64,000 nucleotides of DNA from positions 1-64,000 of the forward strand of contig CALSNU010000001.1 in assembly GCA_943787795.1 (NCBI GenBank), written 5' to 3'. This stretch comes from an uncultured bacterium. GTDB lineage: Bacteria > Planctomycetota > UBA1135 > GCA-002686595. The number at the start of each line of letters is the position of its first letter. The stretch's first letter is position 1. Under the pieces are notes generated by a model. That model saw only the letters and a program-made list of their open reading frames with translations, ran no database searches and was not told where the DNA came from. This document shows, piece by piece, positions 2,576-58,427 of the stretch. A program made the translations under genes and the position numbers.

Positions 2576-2890
2576 GTGTTCGCACCGGGCTGGAGGTCGG
2601 GACGAGTGTCCCCCGTGCTTCAAGCTGGAGAGCAGCGGGGACGGTGGAAGGGCACTTCATGACTCGCTCCGATGACGTCTCGATCGACCGCCGCCCCGGT
2701 CCGACTGAAGTCCACCGGGTGATCCGGAGGCCCGAACCGGCCGCCTGACGCCTTGTGGGACCATCGCCACGGCGCCCCCGCTCGCCTGGCAATATTCCTC
2801 GGAAGTGACCAACCAGGGCCGTTCGCCTACCGTTGCATCGATGAGCCGTGCCGGTCTTCCATTTCGGGAGTCGGCCAGCGCAGCCCACGG

Positions 2891-43941: not shown

Positions 43942-46503
43942 TCAGGCGGGCGCCGCGTCGGCCATCTGTCGGGCGAGGTTTCGGACGGTGCGGGGCAAGA
44001 AACGCTGCCGGCGCGCTCGGTGGATCACGTGATAGGCCGTGAGCCGCGTCACGAGGAGCGCACGGCGTGCGTGGGCGGCATCGCGGACCCACGCCTCCGG
44101 ATCGAGGCGCACGCCGGCGGCGCGCTCGAGGGCGACGCGATGGGCCTCAACCCAGCGGTCCGGATCCTCCGGCCCCACAAAGGCGAGGAGCTCGACGAGA
44201 TCGCGCTGGGGGACGTCGAGGGTGGCGAGCTCCCAGTCATAGGCGACCAGACTGGGACCCGCAGCGGTCCTTCTGAAGCCCACGTTGCGGGGGTTGAAGT
44301 CCCCGTGGATGAGGGTTCGAGGGGTGCCGGAGGGGCCGTCTTGCAGCAGCCGGTCGAGGGCCTGGGGGAGGTCAGCGCTGCCCCACCTCCCGAAGTCATC
44401 CGAGGCGCCCGATGCGAGGGCGCGCCAGAGCGGGGCGAGCCGACAGAGCCGCTCCTGCGTCGGCGGCGCCCCGATCCACCGCTCGCTCTTCAGCGCCTCG
44501 GCGCGGCCCAGGTAGGCCGCGTGGATCGAGGCCAGGCCCTCCACGGCCGCCAAGAGGTGGCCCTCGGTCCAGTCCTCGGGGCGCTCCGCGGAGTCCATGA
44601 GCTCAAGGTCGCCGAGGTCCTCCATCAGGAGCCAGCGCCGTCCCCGTGCCTCGTCCACATGGGTGCCGAGGTGGCGCGGTCTGTGGGCGGCGAGAGCGGG
44701 GTCCGAGAGGAGCGCCGTCTCTCGTAGGTGAGCTCCGAGGAGTCCTGCCTCGAGCCCGTGGTCGCGCCAACATGCGCCCAGCTCCTCGCTCGCCATGGCG
44801 AACACCCGCGCGAGGACGCCGTGGAGCTCCTCGTCCTGTTGCCGGGCCTTGAGGACCGCGGGTCCGTTGGCCCCTCGCCAGCGCGAGAGTCCGCTGGCCG
44901 AACCGAACCTCCACGCGCCCAGCTCGGCGAGGATGCTGCTGCCCTCGAGGCGCTCCACTCCGAGATGGGTCGCGCCGATGAAGCGCTCCACGAAGGCGCG
45001 CTGCGCCGCGCGTTCGCTCGCCGTCTGTCCTTCGGGGCGGGCGAGGGGCGTGGAGGCTGTAGGTGGGGCATCGAGGTACCCCGAGCGCTCGAGGCCCTGG
45101 GTCCAACGTTCGAGCAGGCCCGTCGTGGGCTCCGGGCAGCGGTGGCCATGCTCTTCGAGCCAGCGAGCGCTGGCCCCCGAGTCCACGTGGGTTCGCCGAT
45201 GCTCCTCGTACTGCTGGGGGAGCGTGCAGGCGTGTTCGCCGCCTGGCCGGGACCGAAGGAATGGCAGCAGCGCCGTGAGCGCGTTCGTCGAGGGGGCGGC
45301 CTCAACCCGAGCCAGCCACTCGTCGTAGGGAACGAGTCGGAGGTCGTGCCCGTAGAGCGAGTGCCAGAGCACCACCTCGCGGAAGGGCCGGGGTCGAGGG
45401 CTCACCAGGTGGAGGGTCTCGCGGCCGTCGCTGCCCAGGGCCGTGCGCGCGGCCAGCGCGGCCGCGACGTGGTTCACCGGGACGGCGTCGACATTCCAGT
45501 CAAGGTCGGGCGCCAGGCCTAGCTGAATACAGCCCTTCATGAGCGCGGAGAGAAAGTCCCCGGGGTTGCCCGCCCCCGTGGTCGAGTCACCCGCGATGAG
45601 CGACGGTCGCGCGATCGTGACGGGCAGGCCCCGACGGCCGGCCTCGAGGACCAGCTCCTCTGCCACAGCCTTTCCCTTGGCATAGCCGAGGTCGAGCCCG
45701 GCGAGGTGCCCGAGGGGTTCGGCGCCCTCGTTCAGCTCGTCGACTCCGTCCCGGGCGTAGAGGACCGAGATGGAAGAGCAGAAGTGGAAGGCCTTCGGCC
45801 GGTGTTCGCACGCCAGCCGGAGCAGCTCGCGGGTCCCCTCGGCGTTGGACGCTCGGAGCCTCTCGTAGGGGGAGACCCAGTCCACCTTGGCGGCCAGGTG
45901 GAGCACGGCGTCGATCTCCTCGCTCAGTCGAGCCCACGTCAACGGGTCGAGGCCGAGCCGCGGCTCTTCGAGGTCGCCGCGCAGAACCTCGATCCGGTCC
46001 TCGGTGCCTTCGAGTCCCCTGGAGGACAGCGCGTCGAGCACGCGGGCGCGGTCGCCCCCCCGAGCGAGGCAGGTCACGCGAGCCTCGGTCTGCTGGAGGA
46101 GCTCGGCCAGGGCATGGGCGCCAAGGAAGCCCGTGGCGCCCGTCATGAGCACGTGCCGAGGAGGTCCCGCCCAGCCTTGCGAGGCAGCCGGCGTGATCTC
46201 GACAGGGAGGGTCGCGTCGGAGCTGGGGTCTGCATCGCTGGTCGCGGCCCCGAGAGTGAGCCGCCTGAGGGCCGCGCGGGGCGAGGGGTGCTCGTAGAGC
46301 AGCGTGTCGGGCACGTGCACCTCGAACCGCTGCCGGAGCTCCTCGGTGAGCTCGACGGCGGTGACCGAATCCAGGCCCAGCTCGAAGAGCGGCGCGTCGG
46401 GGTCGACGCTCTCGGCCGTGACGCCGAGGAGGTCGGCGATACGACTCACGAGCCAGGCGAGGTCCGCATCGTTGGCGCTGAGGTCGGGGAGTGCGAGGGT
46501 CAA
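43942..46503 (-). CDS. ACP + thioester reductase + APH/choline-kinase-like phosphotransferase fusion
   Basis: LGLDSVTAVEL phosphopantetheine site; MTGATGFLG, HLAAKVDW, YAKGK reductase motifs; LIHGDFNPRN and YDWELA kinase motifs; TTG start overlaps the FAAL stop. Confidence 0.9.
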   Translation of the reverse strand: MTLALPDLSANDADLAWLVSRIADLLGVTAESVDPDAPLFELGLDSVTAVELTEELRQRFEVHVPDTLLYEHPSPRAALRRLTLGAATSDADPSSDATLPVEITPAASQGWAGPPRHVLMTGATGFLGAHALAELLQQTEARVTCLARGGDRARVLDALSSRGLEGTEDRIEVLRGDLEEPRLGLDPLTWARLSEEIDAVLHLAAKVDWVSPYERLRASNAEGTRELLRLACEHRPKAFHFCSSISVLYARDGVDELNEGAEPLGHLAGLDLGYAKGKAVAEELVLEAGRRGLPVTIARPSLIAGDSTTGAGNPGDFLSALMKGCIQLGLAPDLDWNVDAVPVNHVAAALAARTALGSDGRETLHLVSPRPRPFREVVLWHSLYGHDLRLVPYDEWLARVEAAPSTNALTALLPFLRSRPGGEHACTLPQQYEEHRRTHVDSGASARWLEEHGHRCPEPTTGLLERWTQGLERSGYLDAPPTASTPLARPEGQTASERAAQRAFVERFIGATHLGVERLEGSSILAELGAWRFGSASGLSRWRGANGPAVLKARQQDEELHGVLARVFAMASEELGACWRDHGLEAGLLGAHLRETALLSDPALAAHRPRHLGTHVDEARGRRWLLMEDLGDLELMDSAERPEDWTEGHLLAAVEGLASIHAAYLGRAEALKSERWIGAPPTQERLCRLAPLWRALASGASDDFGRWGSADLPQALDRLLQDGPSGTPRTLIHGDFNPRNVGFRRTAAGPSLVAYDWELATLDVPQRDLVELLAFVGPEDPDRWVEAHRVALERAAGVRLDPEAWVRDAAHARRALLVTRLTAYHVIHRARRQRFLPRTVRNLARQMADAAPA

Positions 46504-48234
46504 GGCGCCGTGACCTCCGCGGGACGATCGGCGCGCAGGAGCGCGGCGCAGGCGTGGCGCTGGGTCTTCCCGGACGTCGTCTTCGGGAGCTTCCTCGCCG
46601 GTAGGAAGAGGAGCCTGGCGATCGGAGCCTCGTGATCCTTCGAGACCGCGGCGCGGATGGCGCGCTCGACCTCCCTGCGCGTCGGCTCGTCGCAGTCCTC
46701 CACCTCACAGACCAGTCCGACGCCCTCGACGGCGCCAGGGCGCGCGTTCCACGCGACGGCGGCCGCGCCCCCCCGGGCGTACAAGGGCGTGGGCGGCCTC
46801 GGCCGTGCGCTCGATGTCCTGGGGGTAGAGCTTGCGGCCCCGGAGGATGATCAGGTCCTTGATCCTCCCGGTGACGAAGAGCTCCCCGCCCTCGAGGGCG
46901 CCGAGGTCGCCGGTACGGAGCCAGGGTCCGCGACCGTCCGTGAGGTACGCCCCGAAGGTCCGCTCGTTCTCCTGCTCCCGTCCCCAATAGCCGTCGGCCG
47001 CGCTGGGTCCCTTGACCCAGATCTCGCCCACGGCGCCCACAGGCAGGGCCTGCGAGGTCATGGGGTCTGCGATCACGAGCTCCTGCTCGGCGACCGGCGT
47101 CCCGCACGAGACGAGCGTCCTCGACCGTCCGTGGCTCGCGGCGCCGCGCAGCAGGTCTTCGCGGTCCAGCGCGGCGGCGTCCGCCTCCAGAAGGCGCGGC
47201 TGGACGTTCCTCCGGCTGGAGGAGACCAGCAGGGTGTTCTCCGCCAGCCCATACGCCGGGAAGAAGGTCTCGGGTTGGAAGCCAGCGCCAGCGAAGGCCT
47301 CGCTGAAGCGCTCGATGGTGTCGGCGCGCACGGGCTCTGCGCCGTTGGCGGCCATGGTCCAGCGGCTCAGGTCGAGGGTGGCCCGCTCCTCCGGCGTGGT
47401 CCGGCGGACGCACAGCTGATAGCCGAAGTCGGGGGACGCTGCGTTGGTGCCGCCGAGCCGGCTCAGGGCCTCCAGCCAGGTCATTGGCCGTGCCAGGAAC
47501 GCGGCTGGAGACATGAGGTAGCCAGGCTGACGGCGGAAGAGCGGGTGGAGCACGCCTTCGATCAGGCCCATGTCGTGCTGTACCGGGAGCCAGGAGACGC
47601 CGGGCCCCTGGTCCGGGCCGCCGCACATCTCGTAGATGCTCGCGAGGTTGGCGAGCAGGTTGGCGTGGGTCACGCGGACTCCCCTGGGACTGGACGTGGA
47701 CCCCGAGGTGTACTGGAGGAAGGCGAGGCTGTCCGCCTTGGCGGAGGGCCGCTCTGCCGCTGGGAGCTCCGCAGCCGCGGGGAGCCCGTCGACCGCGAGG
47801 CGTTCCAGCGCGCCGAACGGACTCGACGTCTCCGCGTCCAGGGCCGCGACATGTCCCAGGAGGGCGGCTGTGGACAGCACGATCGAGGGCGTGCAGTCGG
47901 CGGCCACGGCGGCCAGCCGCTCGAGGCCCCGTGGACCCAGGGAGGGAGAGGGCGGGAAGACCGGTGCTGCGATGACGCCGGCGCGCAGGCAGCCGAAGAA
48001 GGCGGCGAGGAAGTCGAGGCCGGGGGCGAAGAGCAGCAGGGCGCGATCCCCAGGGCGCAGCCGACCGGCGAGGGCCGCGGCGACGCTCGCGCTGCGGGCC
48101 TCGAGCTCCGCGTAGGTCCAGCTCGCCTCGAGCTCGCCGTCCCTCCCGAGGAAGCCGTAGGCGAGCGCGTCGCCGGCGTCCTGGGCGCGGCTGCTCAGGA
48201 GGTCGACGAGCGAATCGTGTCGGGAGTGCTTCAT
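46500..48234 (-). CDS. Fatty acyl-AMP ligase (FAAL), frameshifted in the C7 run at 46768-46774
   Basis: LQYTSGSTSSPRGV, SWLPVQHDMGLI, PAYGLAENTL, FAAL-type insertion, LRTGDLG, GRIKDLII; LPKTTSGKTQR lies in the shifted frame. Confidence 0.9.
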
Positions 48235-49034
48235 GCTCGGCTCCGTTGCCTCGATGTCTTCCGTCGCTGGTGGACGGCGTTCAGGGCGTCGAACACGGCG
48301 GCTCGTTGCTCGTCGAGCGCTTCGACCGTCCAGCCGCCGGTGTCGATGGTGGGGAGGACCTCGACCGTCACCGTGCCAGGGCGTACGTCGAGGCCCAGGC
48401 CAGGGTCCACGTCAGGGGGGACCTCGATGTAGAAGGGGACGATGGGCGCCTGGAGGTCGGTCGCCATATGGAAGGCTCCCCTGTTGAAGGCGCCGAGCTC
48501 GCCGGTGGTGACTCGCATTCCCTCCGGGGAGAGGTAGACGGACTCCCCCGTGCGCTTGAGGGTGGCCGCAGCGCCGGCGAAGATCCTCTTGCGCGCCTCG
48601 GGGTACTCCTGGGGCACGGTCCAGAAGATCCCCGTCACGTAACCGATCAGCCCGATCGGCAGGATCTTGCGCAGGAAGCCGGAGAGGAAGAACCGGGTCC
48701 CGGGCATGCCGAGCGCGATCAGCACGAACATGTCCACCGAGGACGTGTGGTTCGACACGTAGACCGTCTGCGTGCGCGGGAACGGCAGGGCCCCGGCGAC
48801 CTCGAGGCGGACGCCCCAGAGGGCGAGCACCGCGCGCCCGATCCAGGTGCTCAGGGCGAGGTACATGCGCCGGAACTGGAAGAGCGTCAGGACAGCGACC
48901 AGGAAGAGCAGGAGGCTCCCAAGGGAGAGCGTCGTGAGGACGACCGCTGAGAGACACCAGAGGCGCAGGGTCGCCCGAAGCGAGCGCTCCTCGTCGCCGC
49001 GGGCCGAGCGGCCGACGCCGAGGAAGGTGCTCAT
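48231..49034 (-). CDS. Lysophospholipid acyltransferase (PlsC family)
   Basis: N-terminal TM, SNHTSSVD (HX4D), SPEGMR, GAFHMA..APIVP; ATGA overlaps at both ends. Confidence 0.88.
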   Translation of the reverse strand: MSTFLGVGRSARGDEERSLRATLRLWCLSAVVLTTLSLGSLLLFLVAVLTLFQFRRMYLALSTWIGRAVLALWGVRLEVAGALPFPRTQTVYVSNHTSSVDMFVLIALGMPGTRFFLSGFLRKILPIGLIGYVTGIFWTVPQEYPEARKRIFAGAAATLKRTGESVYLSPEGMRVTTGELGAFNRGAFHMATDLQAPIVPFYIEVPPDVDPGLGLDVRPGTVTVEVLPTIDTGGWTVEALDEQRAAVFDALNAVHQRRKTSRQRSRA

Positions 49035-50053
49035 GCGGGCCTCCGGCAGACCACGGTCTGCATGGCGAGGTTGTTCCTGCGGGCGAGCATCAGCCACGGG
49101 CTGACGAGCGCCTGGCCGAGCAGGTAGCGGCCGAGCTCCTCGCGGGGCACGAAGCCGCGACCGTTCAGCTGTCCGAACCGCCACCCCGCATAGATGTAGA
49201 ACCAGGGCGGGAAGGCGCCGTAGGGGAGATGCGTCTCGACCTCAAGACCGGCGCGCTCCACGGCGCGGAGCAGCTGCTCGCGCGAGAAGAGCACCGTGTG
49301 CTGGGGCGCCTGGAGACCCGGCCAGCGGTCGCCGTACCAGCGCGCGGTGCGGCTGTCGAGGCGCGGCACCTCGATGACCATCTGGCCGCCGGGCCGCAGA
49401 ACCTCAAGGCAGCGCTCGAGCGTCGCGGGCGGGTCGTAGTCGTGCTCGAGGTAGTGCCACATGGTCACGAGGTCCATGGACCCCGGCTCGATGGCGGCCT
49501 CGCTGAAGAGCCCCCGGATGAACCGGTTGTGCTCGAACGCAGGGGCATCGGAGAGGTCCTTGAAGTCCACGCCGATCCCGGAGCAGCCGTGCCGCCGGCG
49601 GACCTCCTCCAGGAAGGTCCCCGCCGCGCAGCCGATGTCGAGCACCCGGGACCCGGCGTCGAGCGGCACGAAGCGGTCGACGAGCTTGCGCTTGTCGCGG
49701 TCGTGCTTGCCCATCACCCACCGGTAGAAGGGGGTCAGCACGCCGAAGTCCGAGCTCTTGCGGTGAGCGATATAGGTGTCGTCGTACCACTCCGCGATCC
49801 CGTCCGCGGGGACGCGCGGGTCCTGGTAGGCGAGCCCGCAGTCATCGCAGGTGTGGAAGGTGAAGCGGCCGGGCTTGCCCCCGAGGTCGTCCTTGGCCTC
49901 GGTGAGGAACGTCTTGTTCGAGCTCCCGCAGGCGTAGCAGTTGACCGGCTCGAGGTCGTGGTGTCCCACCAGCGGCGGGGCCGCGACGGCGGGGACGGGG
50001 GCCGTGGCGGTGGCCGCTTCGGTCGCCTGTTGGTCGGGGTCGGTGAGGGTCAT
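49031..50053 (-). CDS. Class I SAM-dependent methyltransferase with N-terminal zinc ribbon
   Basis: CYAC...CDDCGLAYQDPR, VLDIGCAAG, MWHYLEH, LRPGG. Confidence 0.88.
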   Translation of the reverse strand: MTLTDPDQQATEAATATAPVPAVAAPPLVGHHDLEPVNCYACGSSNKTFLTEAKDDLGGKPGRFTFHTCDDCGLAYQDPRVPADGIAEWYDDTYIAHRKSSDFGVLTPFYRWVMGKHDRDKRKLVDRFVPLDAGSRVLDIGCAAGTFLEEVRRRHGCSGIGVDFKDLSDAPAFEHNRFIRGLFSEAAIEPGSMDLVTMWHYLEHDYDPPATLERCLEVLRPGGQMVIEVPRLDSRTARWYGDRWPGLQAPQHTVLFSREQLLRAVERAGLEVETHLPYGAFPPWFYIYAGWRFGQLNGRGFVPREELGRYLLGQALVSPWLMLARRNNLAMQTVVCRRPA

Positions 50054-50637
50054 CGAAGCTCCGGGTCAGTGGCTCGCTCGTGGAGGACGAGCGCGGCGTA
50101 CAGCAGCGCCATGGCGGCGACGCGTGGGGGGGTATCGGCGCCTTCGGTGCCGAGCAGGGCTGCGAGGGCGGGGTACTTGGCGAGGAGGATGAGGGCGTGG
50201 ATCCAGGGGCCCTGGCGGGGCATCGCATACCAGCTGCCCAGGGCGATCAGGAGCGCCACGAGCCCGGCGGCCCGGGCGGGTGCGAGGCCATGGAGCGCGA
50301 CGAGCCCGAACGCGAGGCCGCCGCAGAGCGCCGCCACATGGGGGCTCGTGGAGGCGGCGCGCACGAGGCTGCGCTCGGGGTGGCGGAGGCGGTCGGGCGC
50401 GCGGTCCACGAGGTCGTCGAGCAGCCGCAGGCAGACCACCAGCAGGTAGGCGAGGCCGAGCCGGAGGGCGGCGTCCGTCGCACCAGGCCACGGCGCGCCC
50501 GCCAGGCCAGCGCCGACGATCGCCGTCGCGAGGAGGGGGAAGCGCCACGCTCCGGAGCCAGAGAGCACGCGCTCGGAGAACCATGCGGCGGGTCCTGAGG
50601 CTGCACGGTGCGGACTACTCGTCGACGATACGGACAT
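50050..50637 (-). CDS. Minimal UbiA-superfamily prenyl/alkyl-transferase-like membrane protein
   Basis: RLLDDLVDRAPDRLRHPERSL matches the UbiA DDxxDxxxD..PxR motif; several TM segments; only 195 aa. Confidence 0.65.
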   Translation of the reverse strand: MSVSSTSSPHRAASGPAAWFSERVLSGSGAWRFPLLATAIVGAGLAGAPWPGATDAALRLGLAYLLVVCLRLLDDLVDRAPDRLRHPERSLVRAASTSPHVAALCGGLAFGLVALHGLAPARAAGLVALLIALGSWYAMPRQGPWIHALILLAKYPALAALLGTEGADTPPRVAAMALLYAALVLHERATDPELR

Positions 50638-53150
50638 GACCGCGGCCTCCGTCCACTCTGATCTTCTGGCCGGTCTCAAGGGCCCCGGTGACCCCGGGGA
50701 CCCCCACCACGGTGGGCAGTCCGTACTCTCGGGCGAGGATCGCGCCGTGGGAGAGGAGGCCGCCGCGCTCCACGACGAGCCCGGAGATCAGGGGGAACAG
50801 GGGCGCCCATCCCGGATCGGTCTGTCGCGTGACGAGGATGTCGCCGGGCGCGACCTCCCCGGCGTCCGCGAGGTCGGTCAGGACCACGGCGCGCCCCGTG
50901 ATGACCCCGGCGCACGCGCCCGCCCCGTCGAGGCGCGAGGTGTCCCCGGCCTCCTCCTCGCTGCCGATCCACACCTCACCCTCGGGGAGCATGAAGGCGC
51001 TCGGTGGACGGACGTCGGCCTGTCGGGTGTGTTCCTCGCGGCGCACGGCGGCGACTCGAGTCGCGCTGGACGGCTGGAGCGCGGTGCCCGCGGCGAGGTC
51101 ACAGAGCTCCTCAAGGGAGAAGTACACCGCGTCATCTGCGTGCTCCACCATTCCCTCTCGGACCATGGCGGCGCCCAGCGCGAGGGCGACGTCCCGCAGC
51201 CGGCGGTAGAGCAGCGCCTGCTTGCCGCGCGCGCGCTCACGCATGGTGACCGACCGGCCGCAGGCCCGGGCGATGGGACCGAGCACGAGGCCCCGCCAGC
51301 CGCCGAGCTCGCGGCGCAGCCGCGCGACCGCGCGCAGGCGCTCGGCGGCTCGGACAGCCGCGACCTCGGCGGGGGCTGGGCCCTCGGCGTCGAGGTACGC
51401 GCGAAGCAGGGCCAGGACGCGGGACGGCTCCTCCTGGTAGCTCGGGACCGTGAACACGAGCTCACCGGAGCACCGGTGGCCGTGGTTCTCGAGCCACGCC
51501 TCGAAGGCGGCGCGGAAGCCCGCGTGTCTGGGTCTCTCCCGGATCGCCGCCAGGGCGACGGCGTCGTCGCCGCTGCGCAGGAGGGCCTCGAGCTCGCCGT
51601 CGGGCGCCGCGTGGACGAGGCGCGCCAGATCCCAAAGCCCGGCCGCGGGAGCGGCGCTCACCACGTCGAGGCCCTGGAGCAGCTCGCCGGCGGCAGCGCG
51701 CGGATCTCCGCTCACCGGGGAGAGCACCTTGAGGAGCAGGCCGTGGGTGATCATGGCGCTCGCGTCCGCCAGCCCAGCGTCGGTCCACTGGTGGCGACGA
51801 ATGCGCGTGAATCCCCCCACGCGGCCGCCGAGCTCCACGCGGTCGAGCTCGGCGAGGACCTCTCTGGAGGTGGATCGTGCGTAGGCGTCGACCCTCGACT
51901 CGAAGCGCTCGACGCCCCGCTCCAGGCCAAGCCAGGCCTGCGTCATACGAAACGCCGTGCCGCAGAGCCGCAGGGCGCCTCGCAGGCGCCCCTCCGGTGC
52001 CAGGCGATCGGCCTCTGGGAAGCCCTCTGCGCCTGTGAAGGCGTTGAAGGACGAGGTCAGGAACGCCCCGCCCGGCGCCTCCCGCATGACCGCGTGCAGG
52101 TTGGTCAGGTGGTAGTACAGCCGGCCCTCGTGGGCGCCGACGAGGCGCTGCAGGCGGGGCTCCGAGCGCTGCGAGCGCCGTCTCCGAGACCCCGATCACC
52201 CGAGCGAGGCCGCGGAAGTAGTGGGTGTAGCCAGTGGCAGCGACCGAGTACTGGAGCGGCGTGATCGGCGTGGGGAAGTTCTCGTCCACGTTGGCGTTGG
52301 TCCAGGCGACCTTCGGTCGGGAGCTTGCGACCGCCGTGATGGGGCGTGACTGGACCACGTGCAGCTCACCGTCCCGGGCGAGGACCCACTCCACGTCCTG
52401 CTCGGAGCCCCCGGTGCGCCGCGCCTGGGCCGCGAGGCGTGCGAGCTTGTCCCTGGCGCCGAGCAGCGCGGCGGGGTCGACCTCGTCCTCGAGCCGCTGC
52501 AGTTCAGTGACCGCTCCGGCCGCGTCGAGGGAGAGCCGCCCGGGGGTGACGCGCCCGGAGACCAGGTCCTCGCCCGGCCCGTGGACGTACTCCACCAGCG
52601 TCCGCTTCGCGCTGGGCTCGGCGGGGTCACAGGTGAAGAGGACCCCGGCGAAGTGGGCGCGGATCTGGCGCTGGACGAGCACGGCCAGCCCGCCGAGCGG
52701 GCGGCCCCTCCGCTCCTCATAGGCCCGCACGCGCTCGGCGGCGCGGGCGCCCCAGCACTCCCTTAGCGCACGCTCGAGTTGGTCCGCCCCGTCCACATCG
52801 GCGATGGACTCCAACATGCCCGCGAAGGAGGCGTCCGCGGAGTCCTCCCCGAGCCCAGAGCTGCGCACGATCAGCGTGCCGTCGAGATGTCGGCAGGCGT
52901 CGAGCAGCGCGACCCGGAGCGGCTCGGGGAGCGGGGTGCGGCGGATGCCGTCGGCGTCCATCTCTTCGAGCCCGGTGGCCTCGAGGTACTCCCGTCGGAA
53001 GGTGTCGCTGACCACGACGCCGACCGGGACCGGGAGGCCGGTCGCGGCCAGCGCCGCCTGGCTCGCGGCCTTGGCGCCGAAGAGCGCGGGGTCGAGGGCG
53101 GCTTCGAGCTTGACGAAGGGCGCCGCCTCGGCGGTGGAGTGGAGGCCCAT
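50615..53150 (-). CDS. PEP-utilising dikinase (rifampin phosphotransferase/PEP synthase-like), frameshifted near 52162
   Basis: GAKA, VRSSGLGEDSADASFAG, QDVEW, QSRPIT ATP-grasp domain; TDPGW...GGLLSHGAILAREYGLP phospho-His domain; deleting one base joins the two ORFs (ALEPRLQRLVGAHEGRLYYHLTN). Confidence 0.88.
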
Positions 53151-53734
53151 CAGGCGGGGCGCGCCTTGAAGCCCCGGCGCCAGAGGAGGACGTTGAAGAG
53201 CCAGTGGACGACCGGTCCCGCGAGCAGGACCACGAGCCACGTGCCGGCGGGGAGGCCGAAGGTGAGGTGCACTGCGAGGAGCAGGCCGAGGATGGAGTCG
53301 AGGCGGTCGGCGAGGAAGCAGGCGGTGGCAGCGAGCCGGCCGCGGGGGGCGCCGCCGGGGGCCACGTCCAGCTGCCGCTTCACGAACGAGTTGGGCAGCT
53401 CGCCCAGCATGAAGCCGAGCCCGCCGACGAGCCCGAGCAGCGAGTAGCCCGCGGGGCTGAGGTCCCAGAGGTGCTCGGCGGCTGGCGTGACGGCCGTGAG
53501 CACGACGCCGAGGGCGAGGCAGGTGAGCCCCGACGCGGGCACCATCACCACGAGGCCGCGGAGCGTCTTGTTGGCGCCGAACAGGCGCCGCCCGCGGAAG
53601 CGGAGGCCGGCGTCGAGGGGGATCCGGAGGGACTCGAGGGCGGAGCCGGGGAGCCAGCGGGTCTGGAGCCAGCCGGAGAGAGAGAAGGCCGTGAGCAGGA
53701 ACAGCCCGCGGGCCAGGGCGTCGGGTTCGATCAC
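53150..53734 (-). CDS. CDP-archaeol synthase (CarS)-like CTP-transferase
   Basis: PLDAG...GRRLFGANKTLRG, GELPNSFVKRQLDVAPG, ADRLDS; GTGA overlap with the desaturase stop. Confidence 0.85.
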   Translation of the reverse strand: MIEPDALARGLFLLTAFSLSGWLQTRWLPGSALESLRIPLDAGLRFRGRRLFGANKTLRGLVVMVPASGLTCLALGVVLTAVTPAAEHLWDLSPAGYSLLGLVGGLGFMLGELPNSFVKRQLDVAPGGAPRGRLAATACFLADRLDSILGLLLAVHLTFGLPAGTWLVVLLAGPVVHWLFNVLLWRRGFKARPA

Positions 53735-54705
53735 AGCTGGAACTCCGTGGTGCTCGAGTTCTCGAAGAGGAAGCGCTCGCCGGAGAGGCGCTTGGCGCCG
53801 CGCAGGAACTGCCAGGCGCTGACCCGACGCGGCGGCACCCACGGCACCTGGTGGAGGCGATAGCCGGGGACCTGCGGGTAGGCGTGGTGCCGCTCGTGTT
53901 CGCCCGTGCCGCAGAGGAGCCCGAGGCTGATCCACGGGGGGAAGGCCACGGAGCGGGTGTACTCGGTCTGATCGGTCCCGAGCCTCGGGCGGACGGGGTC
54001 CGCGCCCGCGGTGGGCATGGGGATGTGGGTGTGCTGGCTGAGGATCAGCGGGTCCTGGAAGGCGAGGCCGAGGACGAGCCCGGGGCCGACGAGCCAGAGC
54101 AGCTGCAGGGGACCGACCGCAGCGGCGAGAGCGGCGTAGGCCAGGAGGTGGACCAGCGCGGCGCGCCGCGCGGCTGGCCCCCTTCCCGGGTGGAATTGCT
54201 CCAGGCGACGGACGTTCCAGAAGTTGTTCCACCGGTAGGCGATCGAGAACAGCGGGAGCCAGGTGCGCCACGCGAGGTTGGCGAGCCGGCGCTCCAGCCG
54301 GCCGCGGGTCCGCGGGGCCAGGGACTCGGTGGTCGAGTCCCGGTCCTGCCAGCCCGTCCAGCGGTGGTGCCCCGCGTGGACGAGGCGCCAGGTGGAGAAG
54401 GGGATCAGCGCGATGAATCCCGCCACGTGACCCGCGACGCGGTTCAGGGAACGAGAGGGGAAGAGGTTTCCGTGCCCGGCCTCGTGGAGCAGGCAGAACC
54501 ACTGCAGGCTCCCGAGCCCGATCAGCAGCTGCCCGGTGGCCCAGAGGAGGAGCGATCCCTGGGCAGCTAGCGCCACGCCACCGCCGACCAGCGCGAGGCC
54601 GCTGGCGACGAACGCGGCCCCGGCAGCGCTGACGGGACGGAGTCCGTCGACGGTCTGAGGGTCAGGGATGAGTGCAGGCGAGGAGGCAGGATCCTTGATC
54701 GGCAT
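53731..54705 (-). CDS. Membrane fatty-acid desaturase family protein
   Basis: His boxes HEAGH, HAGHH and HERHH; TM segments. Confidence 0.88.
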   Translation of the reverse strand: MPIKDPASSPALIPDPQTVDGLRPVSAAGAAFVASGLALVGGGVALAAQGSLLLWATGQLLIGLGSLQWFCLLHEAGHGNLFPSRSLNRVAGHVAGFIALIPFSTWRLVHAGHHRWTGWQDRDSTTESLAPRTRGRLERRLANLAWRTWLPLFSIAYRWNNFWNVRRLEQFHPGRGPAARRAALVHLLAYAALAAAVGPLQLLWLVGPGLVLGLAFQDPLILSQHTHIPMPTAGADPVRPRLGTDQTEYTRSVAFPPWISLGLLCGTGEHERHHAYPQVPGYRLHQVPWVPPRRVSAWQFLRGAKRLSGERFLFENSSTTEFQL

Positions 54706-54724
54706 CACGACCACACCATGCGCT

Positions 54725-56941
54725 TCAGCCGGCGCTGATCCGAGGGTGTTCCCGCTGATCGACGGACCAAGCGAGGCTTATCGACCGGACGCCGTGCGCC
54801 GGACGCCGTGCGCTGGGCAGCGGACGGAGCTGCTCGAGCTCAAGGTCGGCAACAGGGAGCACTCCTGGGGTGCTGCGGCCGGCAGAGGGCCTCCGAGGAG
54901 TGCCCGCCATGTGCCGGCCTGGTTCGCCTGCCCCGTGTTCGCCTGCCCCGTGTTCGCCTGCCCCGTGTTCGCCTGCACTGTGCTCGCCTGCACTGTGCTC
55001 GCCTGCGCCGTGCTTGCTTGCGCCGGGGGCAGCGCCCGGGAGGGGTCGCCTCCGGGACCGTCCGCGCCCGTCAGTCGACGGTGTCCGCCGACGGCCCGTC
55101 GGGGGCCCGTCGGGGGCCGGCGCCGCAGGGGCGCCCTCGGGGTCCTCGCCTCGGCCCCTGACGCGAATGCGTGCCACGTAGATCGCGGTGCGCAGCTCAT
55201 GGCTCGAGTAGTACGAGAGGAGCAGGTCGTCCCCGTCGAGCACCGCGCCCGGATAGCTCGTGTCTCCCCCTGAGGGGAGCACCAGGAGGCTTTGGAACGC
55301 GCCGTCCAGGGTCACCTCTCCCACGGCGGTCCGGGGCGTACCGTCCCGGTAGACGCGGCCGGCGGCGAGCATGCGCCCATCGTCGAGGACGATCAGCTCC
55401 GGGCCGCCGAGGTGCTCGGGGAGGTCCACCCAGGTCCACTCTTCGAAGGGGGGCGAGGCGTGGCCGATGCGCGCGGTGGCGCTGAAGGGGTCCCGCCGAA
55501 CGAGGGCGACCAGTCGGCCGTCCGGGAGGGCGCGGAGCGTGGCCTCGTTGGGCTGGCCTGGATGATCGAAGGAGGCGACGAGGTCGTACCGGACGCCGCC
55601 CTCGGTGCGCACTAGGTGGTGGCCCGGGGGGCTCGCTTGCGGCTGATACACGACGCCGAAGCCGGCCTTCTTGGCCCAGGTCACGCGCCATAGCCAGTCG
55701 TCCTTGGACGCGATCTTCGCGTCCAGCGTGGCGGCTCGCATTCGAGTCGGGAACTCGGCCCCACGCCCCCAGAAGGCGACCCTCGGCGCCCGCCCCTGGA
55801 GCACGCCGTCGAGGTACCTGGAGCCGCCCGCGAGGATCATGAGCTCCCCGCCAGGGGTCACGCTCACCTTCGGGTCGCGCAGGTCCACGCCGGGCTCCTC
55901 AAGGAGGCCCCGTGAGCTCCAGGTCAGGCCGTCCCGCGAGGTGAGCACCCGCACCCTCCCGTCGGCGCCGTTCACGTGCCCGTCGCCCTCTCGGAAGGTC
56001 AGGACGAGGTCCTCGCCGAAGCGGCAGAGGTCGGTGAAGGCCTGGTGGGGGGCGTCGTCCCACGCGCGCTGCACGTCGAGCAGCTCCAGCGTGAGGAGGC
56101 CGGCCTCGTCGCTGGCGGGGCGCGGGTGGGCCTCGAAGAACCTCGCCGCGAGCCCGTGGAAGTCAGGGTGCCTGCGATGGCCGCCGCCGTGCTCGAAGAG
56201 CAGGACGTCGCCGTGGCTGCCGCTCGGGTAGCGGGTGACCCGCTCGTCGACGGCCCAGGGGCGGCCCGCCTCACAGGCGCGCTGCGCGCGGAGCTTGCGA
56301 AGAGCGTCGTCCTGCCAGGCCCACTGCACCACGCGATCCCCCCGGCAGCCCGCGTGGAAGACCGGCCGCGGGGGCAGGGTCGCACCGCCCCGGAGCAGCC
56401 GTGACGCGGCCGATGACGGCGCCACCGAGGCGAGCACGTCGCCGCGGGTGGCGAGGAGCAGGTAGGTGAAGCCGCCACCGTTGGAGTGTCCGGTGGCGTG
56501 CACCCGGTCGGGGTCCACGCGGAAGTCCACCCTCGCCCGGGCAAGGAGGGCATCAAAGAAGGCGAGGTCCCGGTCGCCCTCGTCGCCCGGCGCGTGCTGC
56601 CAGCCGGAGAGCTTGCCCTCCGGGTCCGTGAACCCGGCGGTGGCGAGGCCCTGGGGGTAGATGACCACCGCTTCTGGCCACGCCCTGTGGAGGGGAGCCC
56701 CCCGCGCGGTCGCCCGAGCGCGGCCGCCGTGGCCGTGGAAGGCGAAGACCAGCGGTGCGGCGGGCCCGCGCTCATCCTCGCCACGAAGGGCCTCGTCCGG
56801 CGCGAAGACGAGCGCCTCACGAGCGACCCCGTCCACCTCGAGGGTCCAGCGCTCCTGCGCGCTCGCTTCAGCCGAGCCGAGCACGGCGGCCACGAGGACC
56901 AGGGCCTGAGCGGCGCGTCGGAGGATGCAGAGGCCGCTCAA
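54725..56941 (-). CDS. Secreted fusion: PHB-depolymerase/esterase-like hydrolase + sialidase (BNR)-like propeller; true 3' end uncertain
   Basis: Signal peptide; FHGHGG, GHSNGG; AFTDL, DLRDPK, WLWRVTW, PSGGDTSYPG; TTG start just after the upstream stop. Confidence 0.75.
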   Translation of the reverse strand: MSGLCILRRAAQALVLVAAVLGSAEASAQERWTLEVDGVAREALVFAPDEALRGEDERGPAAPLVFAFHGHGGRARATARGAPLHRAWPEAVVIYPQGLATAGFTDPEGKLSGWQHAPGDEGDRDLAFFDALLARARVDFRVDPDRVHATGHSNGGGFTYLLLATRGDVLASVAPSSAASRLLRGGATLPPRPVFHAGCRGDRVVQWAWQDDALRKLRAQRACEAGRPWAVDERVTRYPSGSHGDVLLFEHGGGHRRHPDFHGLAARFFEAHPRPASDEAGLLTLELLDVQRAWDDAPHQAFTDLCRFGEDLVLTFREGDGHVNGADGRVRVLTSRDGLTWSSRGLLEEPGVDLRDPKVSVTPGGELMILAGGSRYLDGVLQGRAPRVAFWGRGAEFPTRMRAATLDAKIASKDDWLWRVTWAKKAGFGVVYQPQASPPGHHLVRTEGGVRYDLVASFDHPGQPNEATLRALPDGRLVALVRRDPFSATARIGHASPPFEEWTWVDLPEHLGGPELIVLDDGRMLAAGRVYRDGTPRTAVGEVTLDGAFQSLLVLPSGGDTSYPGAVLDGDDLLLSYYSSHELRTAIYVARIRVRGRGEDPEGAPAAPAPDGPPTGRRRTPSTDGRGRSRRRPLPGAAPGASKHGAGEHSAGEHSAGEHGAGEHGAGEHGAGEPGRHMAGTPRRPSAGRSTPGVLPVADLELEQLRPLPSARRPAHGVRSISLAWSVDQREHPRISAG
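54922..55025. repeat. 15-bp tandem repeat GTTCGCCTGCCCCGT-like x7
   Basis: Three identical units grading into GCTCGCCTGCACTGT variants. Confidence 0.88.
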
Positions 56942-56942
56942 C

Positions 56943-58427
56943 TCACTCCCCCTGGAAGCACCAGAGGCTGTTCTCGGTCCGGACGAACAGGGCTCCGTCC
57001 ACCACCGCGGGGGTCGCGAAGAGCCCGTCCTTGAGGTCGACGTAGTGCACGATCTCGAGCCCCTCCGCCTCGGCGTCGAGCACGTAGAGGGTGCCCTCCG
57101 CGGATCCCACGAGGACGTGTCCGGCCAGGCCCATGGGTGACATGTAGTACTCGCTGCGGTCCGGCAGCCGCTCACGGTCGAGGACGCGCTTGCCGGTCGC
57201 CGCGTCAATGGCGCTCACGATGCCGCCCGCCTTCATGAGCCAGATGCGGCCCCGGTAGAGCAGCGGAGAGGCGACGTAGGGGAGGCCGCGTTTCCACGTC
57301 CACTCCACGTGGCTCGCGGTGACGTCGCCCTCGCCGCCGCGGCGGATGGCCATCAAGACGTTGGCGCCCGGGCTCTCAGCCCCTCCGGGGGGCGTGATGA
57401 GCTCCGGCCGCTCCCATACGCCGTTCTTGTTCTGGTCGAGGAACCCGAAGGCGTCCTTGGCCCGGCACTCGGGGAGCTCGTCCAGCTCGACCGTCCCGTT
57501 GTCGTTGGCGTCGAGCCGGTCGAAGAGCAGGTTCGGATCGGCCACCTCCTCGTCCGAGAGCTCCAGCGAGCGACCAAAGCCGGCGTCCCAGAAGGACCGG
57601 CCCGTGGCGTTGGGGGTGCTCCAGGCGCCGAAGAAGAGGGTGTCCGCGTTGGCGGTGGGGGTCGTGCAGCTGAAGACCGTGACGCCGCTCACGTTCCACA
57701 GGGGCGCGCCCGTCTTCGGGTCGAAGGAGCACACCTGGCTCGTCCCCCCGATGATCAGCTCCTCGCGGTCCGCGTTGCTCCAGAGGAAGGGCGTCCCGTG
57801 GCTCTCGATGAAGCCAAAGCGATCGATCTTCCAGGCGACCTCGCCGCTCTCGGCGTCGAAGGCGAAGACCGCCGCCTCCGGCGCGCCGTCGCGCGAGAGG
57901 ATCACGTTGCCGCCGGCAAGGATGGGTGAGGTGCCGACGCCGAAGCCGTAGCCGGGGTGGGGCATGCGCTCTTCCCAGAGCAGCTGCCCCTCGAGGTCGA
58001 GTGCCACGAGGCCGTAGGAGTCCACGTAGACGAAGAGCCGCTCGCCGTCCGTACAGGGCGTCGAGACCGCAGGGACCGCGTCCGCGTGGGAGTAGCTCGG
58101 CGGGTTCTCGGCGAGGAAGCTCCGGCGCCACAGCTCATCGCCCGTGTCCGTATCGATGCCGACCACCACGCCGCGGGCCCCGACCTGCCCCGTGAGGAAG
58201 ACCTTGCGCTCGTGGACGCAGGGCGAGGAGTGCCCCGCGGGCAGCGCGGCGCGCCAGAGCAGGTGCCGCTCGGGTCCAAAGTCGAGGGGGATCGTGGAGT
58301 CCTCGGAGACCGGATGTCCACCGGGCCCGCGGAACTGGGGCCACGAGGAGGCCTCATCATGCTGCGCCGCGAGGACGGGACCGAGCGACGTGATGAAGAG
58401 CGACAGCGGTAGAGCGAGGAGGCGCAT
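56943..58427 (-). CDS. PQQ-binding-like beta-propeller (BamB-like) protein with an EF-hand insert
   Basis: WPQFRGPGG, GHSSPCV, TGDELWR, YVASPLL, FATPAV; DANDNGTVELDE and DQNKNGVWERPE loops. Confidence 0.88.
   Translation of the reverse strand: MRLLALPLSLFITSLGPVLAAQHDEASSWPQFRGPGGHPVSEDSTIPLDFGPERHLLWRAALPAGHSSPCVHERKVFLTGQVGARGVVVGIDTDTGDELWRRSFLAENPPSYSHADAVPAVSTPCTDGERLFVYVDSYGLVALDLEGQLLWEERMPHPGYGFGVGTSPILAGGNVILSRDGAPEAAVFAFDAESGEVAWKIDRFGFIESHGTPFLWSNADREELIIGGTSQVCSFDPKTGAPLWNVSGVTVFSCTTPTANADTLFFGAWSTPNATGRSFWDAGFGRSLELSDEEVADPNLLFDRLDANDNGTVELDELPECRAKDAFGFLDQNKNGVWERPELITPPGGAESPGANVLMAIRRGGEGDVTASHVEWTWKRGLPYVASPLLYRGRIWLMKAGGIVSAIDAATGKRVLDRERLPDRSEYYMSPMGLAGHVLVGSAEGTLYVLDAEAEGLEIVHYVDLKDGLFATPAVVDGALFVRTENSLWCFQGE

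Follow-up and report, generated by a model that had tools for sequence, protein, structure and literature searches.

In a 64,000-nucleotide stretch of DNA (hereafter the window; positions 1 to 64,000 of contig CALSNU010000001.1, assembly GCA_943787795.1, from an uncultured planctomycete), we analysed a gene whose product joins an acyl carrier protein (ACP) domain, a thioester reductase (R) domain and an APH-fold small-molecule kinase in one polypeptide. The fusion recurs beyond this genome, and the same kinase family is also found behind a second, unrelated thioester reductase. We consider it likely, though by no wide measure, that acyl-ACP would be reduced to a fatty alcohol and the alcohol phosphorylated to an alkyl phosphate, which would then be CDP-activated or transferred into a lipid.

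The fusion protein and its spread

The gene lies in DNA of about 70% G+C and shows a third-position G+C content (GC3) of 0.87, a bias as in a real gene. The gene and its domains are arranged as follows:

43942..46503, minus strand: ACP-R-kinase fusion gene (P0001), 853 aa, TTG start; open reading frame (ORF) and translation
46264..46455, minus strand: carrier (PP-binding) domain, residues 17-80; Pfam PF00550, E 2.3e-20; Ser46 in GLDS
45073..46155, minus strand: thioester reductase domain, residues 117-477; TIGR01746
43954..45036, minus strand: APH-fold kinase domain, residues ~490-850; Pfam APH, AlphaFold2 (AF2) model and Foldseek

All motifs quoted in a first-pass annotation of this DNA are present in the translation, namely GLDS (residues 43-46) in the carrier and GATGFLG (122-128) and YxxxK (Y274, K278) in the reductase, followed by HGDFNPRN (733-740) and YDWE (755-758) of APH-type kinases. 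The combination of PP-binding, NAD_binding_4 and APH domains that it proposed was likewise recovered in full by Pfam. A kinase domain does follow the reductase as it had stated, with a length of about 370 aa and not about 350 aa. The fatty acyl-AMP ligase (FAAL) partner is encoded by a separate gene and is not part of the 853-aa protein.

For the reductase half, Pfam placed NAD_binding_4 (PF07993) at residues 121-349 (E 8.7e-57), and the NCBIfam model TIGR01746 matched residues 117-477 with 288.4 bits against a cut-off of 213.35. Alignment of 100 full-length homologues (A5) showed that Ser46 of the carrier is invariant in all 100, as are the TGxxGxxG motif (T121, G122, G125, G128) and the SDR triad S243/Y274/K278. 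The nearest solved R domain is the terminal R domain of myxalamid biosynthesis, MxaA-R (4u7w/4w4t; 37-38% identity, target TM-score 0.88-0.89). PMC8024701 cites the MxaA-R paper under a title on primary-alcohol production and names AusA-R as the sole R structure that forms an aldehyde. By analogy with MxaA-R, and with a parallel fusion to an HMG-CoA reductase-like domain described below, the R domain would carry out a four-electron, alcohol-forming reduction.

For the kinase half, Pfam assigned APH (PF01636) to residues 611-793 (E 6.9e-11; 42.8 bits, where the cut-off is 23.2). Residues 480-853, modelled by AF2 from an alignment of 45 kinase domains (A2), fold as a single kinase domain (pLDDT 89.7, pTM 0.90), and Foldseek matched the model with probability 1.00 to APH-fold small-molecule kinases (3dxp, 2q83, 4h05, 2ppq and others; target TM-score 0.5-0.64), including 3dxp as the top match, YtaA, a 25-hydroxysteroid kinase, APH(3'), corramycin phosphotransferase and type II homoserine kinase. 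Residues K552, R594, E595, H733, D735, N740 and D756-W757-E758 are invariant in the 100 homologues and are assigned by analogy to a putative HxDxxxxN catalytic loop, a D-x-E metal site, a beta-3 lysine and a helix-C glutamate. Together, sequence and model indicate that the kinase half is probably complete and active. On all features that could be assessed, the 853-aa protein belongs to both the TIGR01746 and PF01636 families, and the invariance of its putative catalytic residues across 100 homologues is far beyond chance. A full-length AF2 model (pLDDT 91.8, pTM 0.88) contains a low-confidence linker of merely three residues (484-486); because of this short linker and the high pTM, the R and kinase domains are predicted to form one body, which suggests that their arrangement may be fixed.

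In a profile search of the PDB with the kinase, the solved relatives detectable by sequence were the ACAD11 kinase domain (8v3v; E 1.7e-5, in a stretch of about 80 residues that surrounds the catalytic loop) and 3dxp only. According to a preprint (bioRxiv 10.1101/2025.09.10.675409), 3dxp is the nearest structure to the 1-O-alkylglycerol kinase of ACAD10, which carries a DWE motif, and two further papers (PMC12440821, PMC11342911) describe phosphorylation of 4-hydroxyacyl-CoAs by ACAD10/11 kinase domains. The nearest characterised kinases thus act on lipid hydroxyls, which by analogy favours a lipid alcohol as substrate. We infer the substrate of the kinase from its fusion partners and gene neighbours alone.

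The fusion is not peculiar to one assembly, whereas uniqueness to it would, in the first-pass annotation, have refuted the proposal; hundreds of full-length homologues from several phyla make it common rather than rare. A word-indexed protein search returned 732 proteins at E <= 1e-3 among 8000 candidates scored, and 117 of the 120 matches listed cover at least 95% of the query, with lengths of 841-936 aa. In every one of the 100 aligned homologues the R domain is followed by a kinase of about 370 aa. Where the source gives a name, it is 'thioester reductase domain-containing protein' only, so the kinase half has been overlooked in present annotation. In a survey of 185,579 species genomes (one genome per species), relatives of alignment A1 were confirmed in 432 of 498 candidate stretches; with a full-length alignment instead, 236 of 353 candidate stretches were confirmed. 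Hosts include Acidobacteriota (Vicinamibacterales, Pyrinomonadaceae, Thermoanaerobaculia), Gemmatimonadota and Planctomycetota, as well as Burkholderiales, Propionivibrio and other Proteobacteria. No cultured strain was found for loci of the ACP-R-kinase type (R-type): all 78 loci of the full-length-alignment search are records of metagenome-assembled genomes. A kinase-domain profile run against 1.84 billion representatives matched 3687, 1022 and 502 proteins at E <= 1e-3, 1e-10 and 1e-30, respectively.

A second reductase partner of the kinase

Many matches of the genome survey cover only residues ~500-850 of the query. These kinase-only matches are the C-termini of proteins of about 800-960 aa with an N-terminal HMG-CoA_red domain (Pfam E 1e-98 to 1e-119), which were seen in Fluviicoccus, Thiomargarita, Myxococcales, a deltaproteobacterium and Nocardia. 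The HMG-CoA reductase (HMGR)-like domain aligns end to end with the solved HMGR 6hr7 (E 2.3e-80) and retains the stretches SEGALVAS, GDAAGQNM, DKK and ARAH, which we take to hold the catalytic Glu, Asp, Lys and His. HMG-CoA reductase is a four-electron thioester reductase whose product is a primary alcohol. The kinase family therefore sits on two unrelated thioester reductases, one of them alcohol-forming by nature, and of the evidence available this argues most strongly that what the kinase takes is the alcohol formed by its neighbouring domain.

In order to gauge how the kinase is combined, the best 150 of the kinase-profile representatives were classed by phmmer against reference pieces:

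ACP-R + kinase: 74/150 (69 simple, 3 split hits, 2 FAAL-ACP-R-kinase, P0138 and P0260)
HMGR + kinase: 35/150 (34 simple, 1 FAAL-PP-binding-HMGR-kinase, P0261, confirmed by Pfam)
PPDK-like middle domain + kinase: 1/150 (P0262)
Kinase only: 40/150 (fragments or genuine stand-alone genes)

P0262, a metagenome protein of 832 aa, carries the middle (substrate-binding) part of a dikinase directly followed by the kinase domain. It is perhaps a fragment or chimera, since it is without a Pfam match and begins inside the PPDK-like domain; either it ties the two phosphotransferases together as a Rosetta-stone fusion, or the gene call is truncated or chimeric. In a quick tree of 45 kinase domains the 27 HMGR-fused rows (L033, a stand-alone kinase, excluded) form one clade with SH-aLRT support of 100. 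The 17 R-fused rows split into two groups whose mutual relation is not settled by this tree, the backbone of which is weak (support 49).

A genuine mevalonate or archaeal-type isoprenoid pathway was considered for the HMGR-type clusters and is unlikely, because the HMGR-like domain scores 301 against the TIGR00533 cut-off of 441.8, and because the HMGR-kinase gene adjoins a fatty-acid CoA ligase and the HMGR domain of P0261 follows FAAL and PP-binding domains. In the loci read we saw no further gene of the mevalonate pathway, which also counts against it.

The gene clusters

In the window, the fusion is the last gene of a cluster on the minus strand, and this gene order repeats in loci of Acidobacteriota and Planctomycetota. 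From upstream to downstream, the genes preceding the fusion are:

53731..54714, minus strand: membrane fatty-acid desaturase/hydroxylase family; Pfam FA_desaturase E 2.5e-28
53153..53725, minus strand: CarS-like (CDP-archaeol synthase family) membrane protein; PF01864 E 4.5e-11, 43.5 bits against 22
50615..53240, minus strand: PPDK/rifampin-phosphotransferase/PigC-like dikinase, frameshifted near 52163; PEP-utilizers mobile domain E 5.9e-24
50050..50679, minus strand: short UbiA-like membrane protein of a ~190-aa family; Pfam UbiA 26.2 bits, below the cut-off of 34.2
49031..50053, minus strand: SAM-dependent methyltransferase; Pfam Methyltransf_23 E 4.8e-29
48231..49034, minus strand: AGPAT-type acyltransferase, probable start M51 of ORF 48231-49184; Pfam Acyltransferase E 1.9e-15
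46705..48234, minus strand: fatty acyl-AMP ligase-like gene, 509 aa; Pfam AMP-binding E 2.7e-57

For the FAAL-like gene the NCBIfam FAAL models score best, yet under their cut-offs; the AGPAT carries an NHTSSVD (HX4D) motif. Homologues of the CarS-like protein score 74.3 and 38.5 against a cut-off of 148 for the archaeal equivalog NF003114. The short UbiA-like family (A3) aligned with gammaproteobacterial UbiA prenyltransferases (A4) in hhalign (probability 96.2, E 2.2e-9), and both share an Asp-rich motif. In the dikinase, residues 189-489 of a 490-aa ORF match rifampin phosphotransferase (RPH; 5fbs/5hv1, E 1.4e-31), and intact homologues hold all three domains, PPDK_N (ATP-grasp), substrate-binding and swivel phosphohistidine.

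Compared with relatives that are 82% identical and have one ORF (L001, L002), the window dikinase gene has a 1-nt insertion near 52163 and is split over two frames. In tblastn, the intact dikinase of L037 matched frame -3 (52877-52188) and then frame -1 (52153-50621), with the first ~150 residues unmatched. The frameshift is either a sequencing error or a real, recent inactivation. We also considered the 490-aa ORF as a histidine-domain protein without an ATP domain that is charged by the APH kinase, and rejected this, as tblastn and DNA alignment show a 1-nt frameshift in a normal three-domain gene. Two plus-strand ORFs (52359-52766 and 52779-53447) were rejected as genes as well: they pass the GC3 filter and have tblastn matches in relatives, yet are antisense to the dikinase and CarS-like genes. 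Such antisense shadow ORFs are a trap in 70% G+C DNA.

Two further ORFs were noted in the window. An 827-aa ORF with high GC3 and without a Pfam family (54725-57208, minus strand) lies between a PQQ-repeat gene and the desaturase; its body is without a counterpart in L001 and L002, and its first ~90 residues match L002 only, where the ORF overlaps the PQQ gene. Judged by this comparison, it looks like an insertion specific to the window genome. A 2201-aa ORF at 2753-9358 (plus strand) has a strong coding bias.

Neighbours were counted in 80 loci (37 R-type, 40 HMGR-type, 2 remnants and 1 stand-alone kinase) by tblastn at 1e-6, so that the counts are lower bounds:

Dikinase (PPDK/RPH/PigC-like): R-type 30/37, HMGR-type 30/40
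CarS-like: R-type 30/37, HMGR-type 17/40
AGPAT: R-type 31/37, HMGR-type 0/40
Methyltransferase: R-type 30/37, HMGR-type 0/40
Acyl-activating enzyme (two queries pooled, window FAAL and L029 CoA-ligase): R-type 29/37, HMGR-type 25/40
Desaturase: R-type 27/37, HMGR-type 0/40
Short UbiA-like: R-type 21/37, HMGR-type 0/40
UbiA prenyltransferase: R-type 0/37, HMGR-type 28/40
370-aa protein without assigned function: R-type 0/37, HMGR-type 26/40
CDP-alcohol transferase: R-type 2/37, HMGR-type 17/40
MMPL transporter: R-type 0/37, HMGR-type 14/40
DUF3419: R-type 0/37, HMGR-type 9/40

In R-type loci the acyl-activating gene lies directly upstream of the fusion. Five R-type loci show none of dikinase, CarS-like, UbiA-like and CDP-alcohol transferase genes, and all five are short or cut upstream. 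In gammaproteobacterial clusters, NCBIfam assigned the neighbouring dikinase to 'phosphoenolpyruvate synthase' (NF004883; next-best models RPH, PigC and RedH) and the other neighbours to 'prenyltransferase' (NF004617), 'fatty acid CoA ligase family' (NF006754), an archaetidylserine-synthase-like CDP-alcohol transferase and a CDP-archaeol-synthase-like protein. The smallest arrangement, in Burkholderiales (L030, L069), consists of an R-kinase without ACP (787-808 aa), a CarS-like gene and CDP-OH_P_transf, as identified by Pfam in L069 and, for the CarS-like gene of L030, by tblastn; dikinase, UbiA and AGPAT genes were not found near this module in either locus by tblastn and Pfam.

Variation among the HMGR-type clusters was also seen at their edges. 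In nine loci (L072:7557-8684, L012:9667-10803 and seven more) a DUF3419 gene adjoins the HMGR-kinase gene and the CarS-like gene is absent; such clusters occur in Myxococcota, a deltaproteobacterium and Solirubrobacterales. DUF3419 is the family of the betaine-lipid enzyme BtaA, and its presence hints at a different head-group chemistry. Gammaproteobacterial HMGR-kinase clusters (L029:2782-7196 and others from Fluviicoccus, Marinobacter, Atopomonas and relatives) start with a LolA-like protein, a 418-aa protein and an MMPL/HpnN-like RND transporter, an arrangement suggesting that the lipid product is exported to the outer membrane. Culturable strains that carry the HMGR-kinase cluster are Fluviicoccus keumensis DSM 105135, Thalassolituus marinus IMCC1826 and Atopomonas hussainii JCM 19513.

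The window assembly (4.7 Mb, 8 contigs, 85% complete) carries the fusion gene in single copy. Among 60 related genomes, 5 of 17 from the same genus matched and 0 of 43 from other genera of the family or order. Two of the five matching congeners have full-length genes and three (G003, G017, G004) have C-terminal remnants only; the remnants keep the last 100-175 kinase residues (L004:10001-10504; L003:1-501). In L004, everything between the PQQ-repeat gene and kinase residue ~680 is missing; because the stump directly follows the PQQ-repeat gene, the whole lipid cluster (~12 kb) has been deleted there. Since only 5 of 17 congeners match, three of them with remnants alone, and the cluster of L004 is missing, the cluster is patchy and being lost in this lineage.

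A proposed alkyl phosphate pathway, its alternatives and known relatives

The pathway that we infer, from the four-electron reduction through the identity of the kinase substrate to every downstream step, would run as follows. The stand-alone FAAL would adenylate a fatty acid and load it onto Ser46 of the carrier; the R domain would reduce the thioester with NADPH via the aldehyde to the primary fatty alcohol; and the fused APH-fold kinase would use ATP to convert this alcohol into a long-chain alkyl phosphate, which would be the committed precursor that the operon's membrane enzymes draw on. With CTP, the CarS-like protein could turn alkyl phosphate into CDP-alkanol or, alternatively, act alongside the PPDK/PigC-like dikinase, with alkyl phosphate going to the diphosphate. 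A UbiA-like protein or a CDP-alcohol transferase would then couple the activated chain to an acceptor, while AGPAT, methyltransferase and desaturase may tailor the product into a lipid, roles that are guesses. It is equally a guess that the RPH/PigC-type dikinase adds a second phosphate or activates another oxygen.

The CarS family converts a lipid phosphomonoester and CTP into a CDP-lipid. The genes that accompany the kinase (CarS-like, CDP-alcohol transferase) are thus of a kind that consumes lipid phosphomonoesters, which by analogy supports an alkyl phosphate. That the fatty alcohol released by the reductase is phosphorylated on the same protein had been the proposal of the first-pass annotation: the domain architecture, the intact kinase site and the underlying logic (two reductase partners, the myxalamid R domain, the neighbours) speak for this order of steps, and it is the choice of free fatty alcohol as substrate that stays conjectural.

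Several observations weigh against the alkyl phosphate pathway. Whether the R domain stops at the aldehyde cannot be told from its sequence. ACAD10/11 act on 4-hydroxyacyl-CoA or 1-O-alkylglycerol and not on plain fatty alcohols, and their kinship to the window kinase is remote. The kinase shows no fusion partner in 40 of the 150 best representatives, be these fragments or genuine stand-alone genes. At L033:1743-4186, a stand-alone 403-aa kinase is followed by a radical-SAM/SPASM gene, and no reductase was detected by tblastn in this 12.9-kb locus or in the six Pfam-scanned ORFs of its first 7 kb. Six HMGR-type loci of 9-17 kb show none of dikinase, CarS-like, UbiA-like or CDP-alcohol transferase genes by tblastn. 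Most clusters (30/37 and 30/40) hold a second phosphotransferase, so it is ambiguous which enzyme phosphorylates what. Lastly, the frameshifted dikinase and the kinase remnants may reflect a pathway that is decaying in the lineage of the window. Independently of these points, FAD-oxidoreductase fragments lie upstream of the stand-alone kinase in L033, in a context unlike that of the reductase clusters.

The alternative that survives best, which we nevertheless regard as doubtful, places the kinase later, on a glycerol intermediate: 1-O-alkylglycerol would be phosphorylated to 1-alkyl-glycerol-3-phosphate, AGPAT would acylate it and the CarS-like protein would CDP-activate the product, with dikinase and UbiA-like protein forming the ether bond from the product of the reductase. 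This scheme uses each enzyme of a window-type cluster once (AGPAT 31/37, CarS-like 30/37, PPDK-like 30/37), and PigC/RedH-type enzymes activate oxygen atoms with phosphate. The precedent for the kinase step is the ACAD10 kinase domain, a 1-O-alkylglycerol kinase with a DWE motif and 3dxp as nearest structure in the preprint (bioRxiv 10.1101/2025.09.10.675409). On the other hand, the minimal Burkholderiales module is without an ether-forming candidate and without AGPAT, AGPAT occurs in none of the 40 HMGR-type loci, and the fusion of the kinase to a reductase, rather than to AGPAT or CarS, is left unexplained.

Slightly less probable again is that the kinase acts on an acyl chain still held by ACP or CoA, such as a 3- or 4-hydroxyacyl thioester, and phosphorylates a hydroxyl of that chain. 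The phosphate would then serve as leaving group for elimination or as modification, and the reductase would work independently on this tethered substrate. The ACAD11 kinase domain and 3dxp as sole sequence-detectable solved relatives, the 25-hydroxysteroid kinase among the top fold matches, and a fusion partner that has the same thioester as its ligand all fit this possibility, for which LvaA-type kinases provide a comparison; so does the use of 4-hydroxyacyl-CoAs by ACAD10/11, as given in PMC12440821 and PMC11342911. Yet the ACAD11 match spans only ~80 residues at the catalytic loop, no elimination partner (ACAD-like domain) was found in any cluster examined, and CarS-like and CDP-alcohol-transferase neighbours need a persisting lipid phosphomonoester and not a transient leaving group. 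Moreover, the reductase-specific fusion (109 of the 150 best representatives) fits consecutive steps better, and the HMGR type is alcohol-forming by analogy, while among solved domains the R type comes closest to one that forms an alcohol. Together with the minimal module, such fusions make all the alternatives, a non-lipid role included, less probable.

That the kinase does not serve lipid synthesis at all, being a regulatory or protein kinase, a self-resistance APH or an ATP module charging the swivel histidine of the dikinase, is very improbable: antibiotic kinases do share the APH fold, the window dikinase ORF with the histidine domain has no in-frame ATP-grasp part and in P0262 the kinase is attached to a PPDK-like middle domain, but the missing ATP-grasp part is explained by the 1-nt frameshift and intact homologues have their own PPDK_N, Burkholderiales modules are without any dikinase, no antibiotic-type cluster or regulator context was seen in the window and the loci scanned, and P0262 is possibly a fragment or chimera.

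Beyond the alkyl phosphate pathway itself, a broader idea can be put forward only tentatively: the fusion could open a lipid pathway, widespread among bacteria yet unrecognised, in which long-chain alkyl phosphates replace acyl-glycerol phosphate as starting material and are processed by archaeal-type membrane enzymes, via CDP-alkanol or a second phosphorylation. On the first route, CarS-like formation of CDP-alkanol followed by archaetidylserine-synthase-like head-group transfer would yield glycerol-free alkyl-phospho-head-group lipids. On the second, PigC/RPH-like second phosphorylation followed by UbiA-like alkyl transfer would produce a non-isoprenoid ether bond with neither AGPS nor a plasmalogen-type reductase involved; if true, this route would be a candidate answer to the alkyl ether lipids of aerobic Acidobacteriota, Gemmatimonadota and Planctomycetota.

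The fusion marks a conserved operon family (432 loci; 502 representatives at E <= 1e-30), and the chance that a new lipid pathway lies behind it is real. A conserved kinase behind both the R domain and the unrelated HMGR-like reductase predicts an activity new to the papers searched, a bacterial fatty-alcohol kinase giving alkyl phosphates. Given the kinship of its neighbours with archaeal lipid enzymes, bacterial ether or glycerol-free phospholipids that are still unassigned could stem from the pathway, which would also provide a biocatalytic means of making alkyl phosphates out of fatty acids. In the full-text literature searched (subscription journals and supplements lay outside its scope), we found no description of the fusion, of a bacterial fatty-alcohol kinase, of alkyl diphosphates or of the operon.

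Among known systems, terminal R domains of nonribosomal peptide synthetases (NRPS), polyketide synthases and FAAL systems (TIGR01746; MxaA-R, the R domain from an NRPS found in Mycobacterium tuberculosis, carboxylic acid reductase) likewise follow a carrier with an SDR-type R domain. There the polypeptide stops with the R domain, from which an aldehyde or alcohol is set free, whereas the window protein continues into the ~370-aa kinase. The ElbD protein of the ether-lipid (elb) operon of Myxococcus xanthus has the same parts (acyl-activating, ACP, reductase, AGPAT-like) and also belongs to a lipid operon. According to PMC9131029, however, ElbD carries these parts on one protein without a kinase, whereas in the window FAAL and AGPAT are separate genes and a kinase is added; the elb neighbours are HAD-like and epimerase-family genes, as opposed to CarS-like, PPDK/PigC-like, UbiA-like, methyltransferase and desaturase genes. 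With domain order and neighbours differing in this way, the window cluster is not an elb operon. In a preprint on elb in sponge symbionts, kinases appear only as diacylglycerol kinases.

ACAD10/ACAD11 and the window kinase have in common the APH fold, the DWE metal motif and fusion to an enzyme of a neighbouring step. They differ in the catalytic loop (HYDxK in bioRxiv 10.1101/2025.09.10.675409, as opposed to HGDFNPRN) and in the partner, which is an acyl-CoA dehydrogenase or a HAD phosphatase there and a reductase here. An ACAD10/11-type assignment was rejected on the differing motif, the absent ACAD domain and a match to 8v3v of only E 1.7e-5.

In the mevalonate pathway, HMG-CoA reductase carries out a four-electron reduction to a primary alcohol, and mevalonate kinase then phosphorylates this alcohol with ATP. 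The chemical logic is the same as that proposed for the fusion, and the sister architecture uses an HMGR-like domain itself; mevalonate kinase is of the GHMP family, whereas the window kinase has the APH fold and would receive its substrate via FAAL/ACP or a fatty-acid CoA ligase. Finally, families homologous to archaeal CarS, DGGGP synthase (UbiA family) and archaetidylserine synthase (PF01864, NF004617, CDP-OH_P_transf) adjoin the reductase-kinase genes. In contrast to their archaeal counterparts, these bacterial neighbours score under the archaeal equivalog cut-offs, and the chain they handle would come from a fatty acid and not from an isoprenoid diphosphate.

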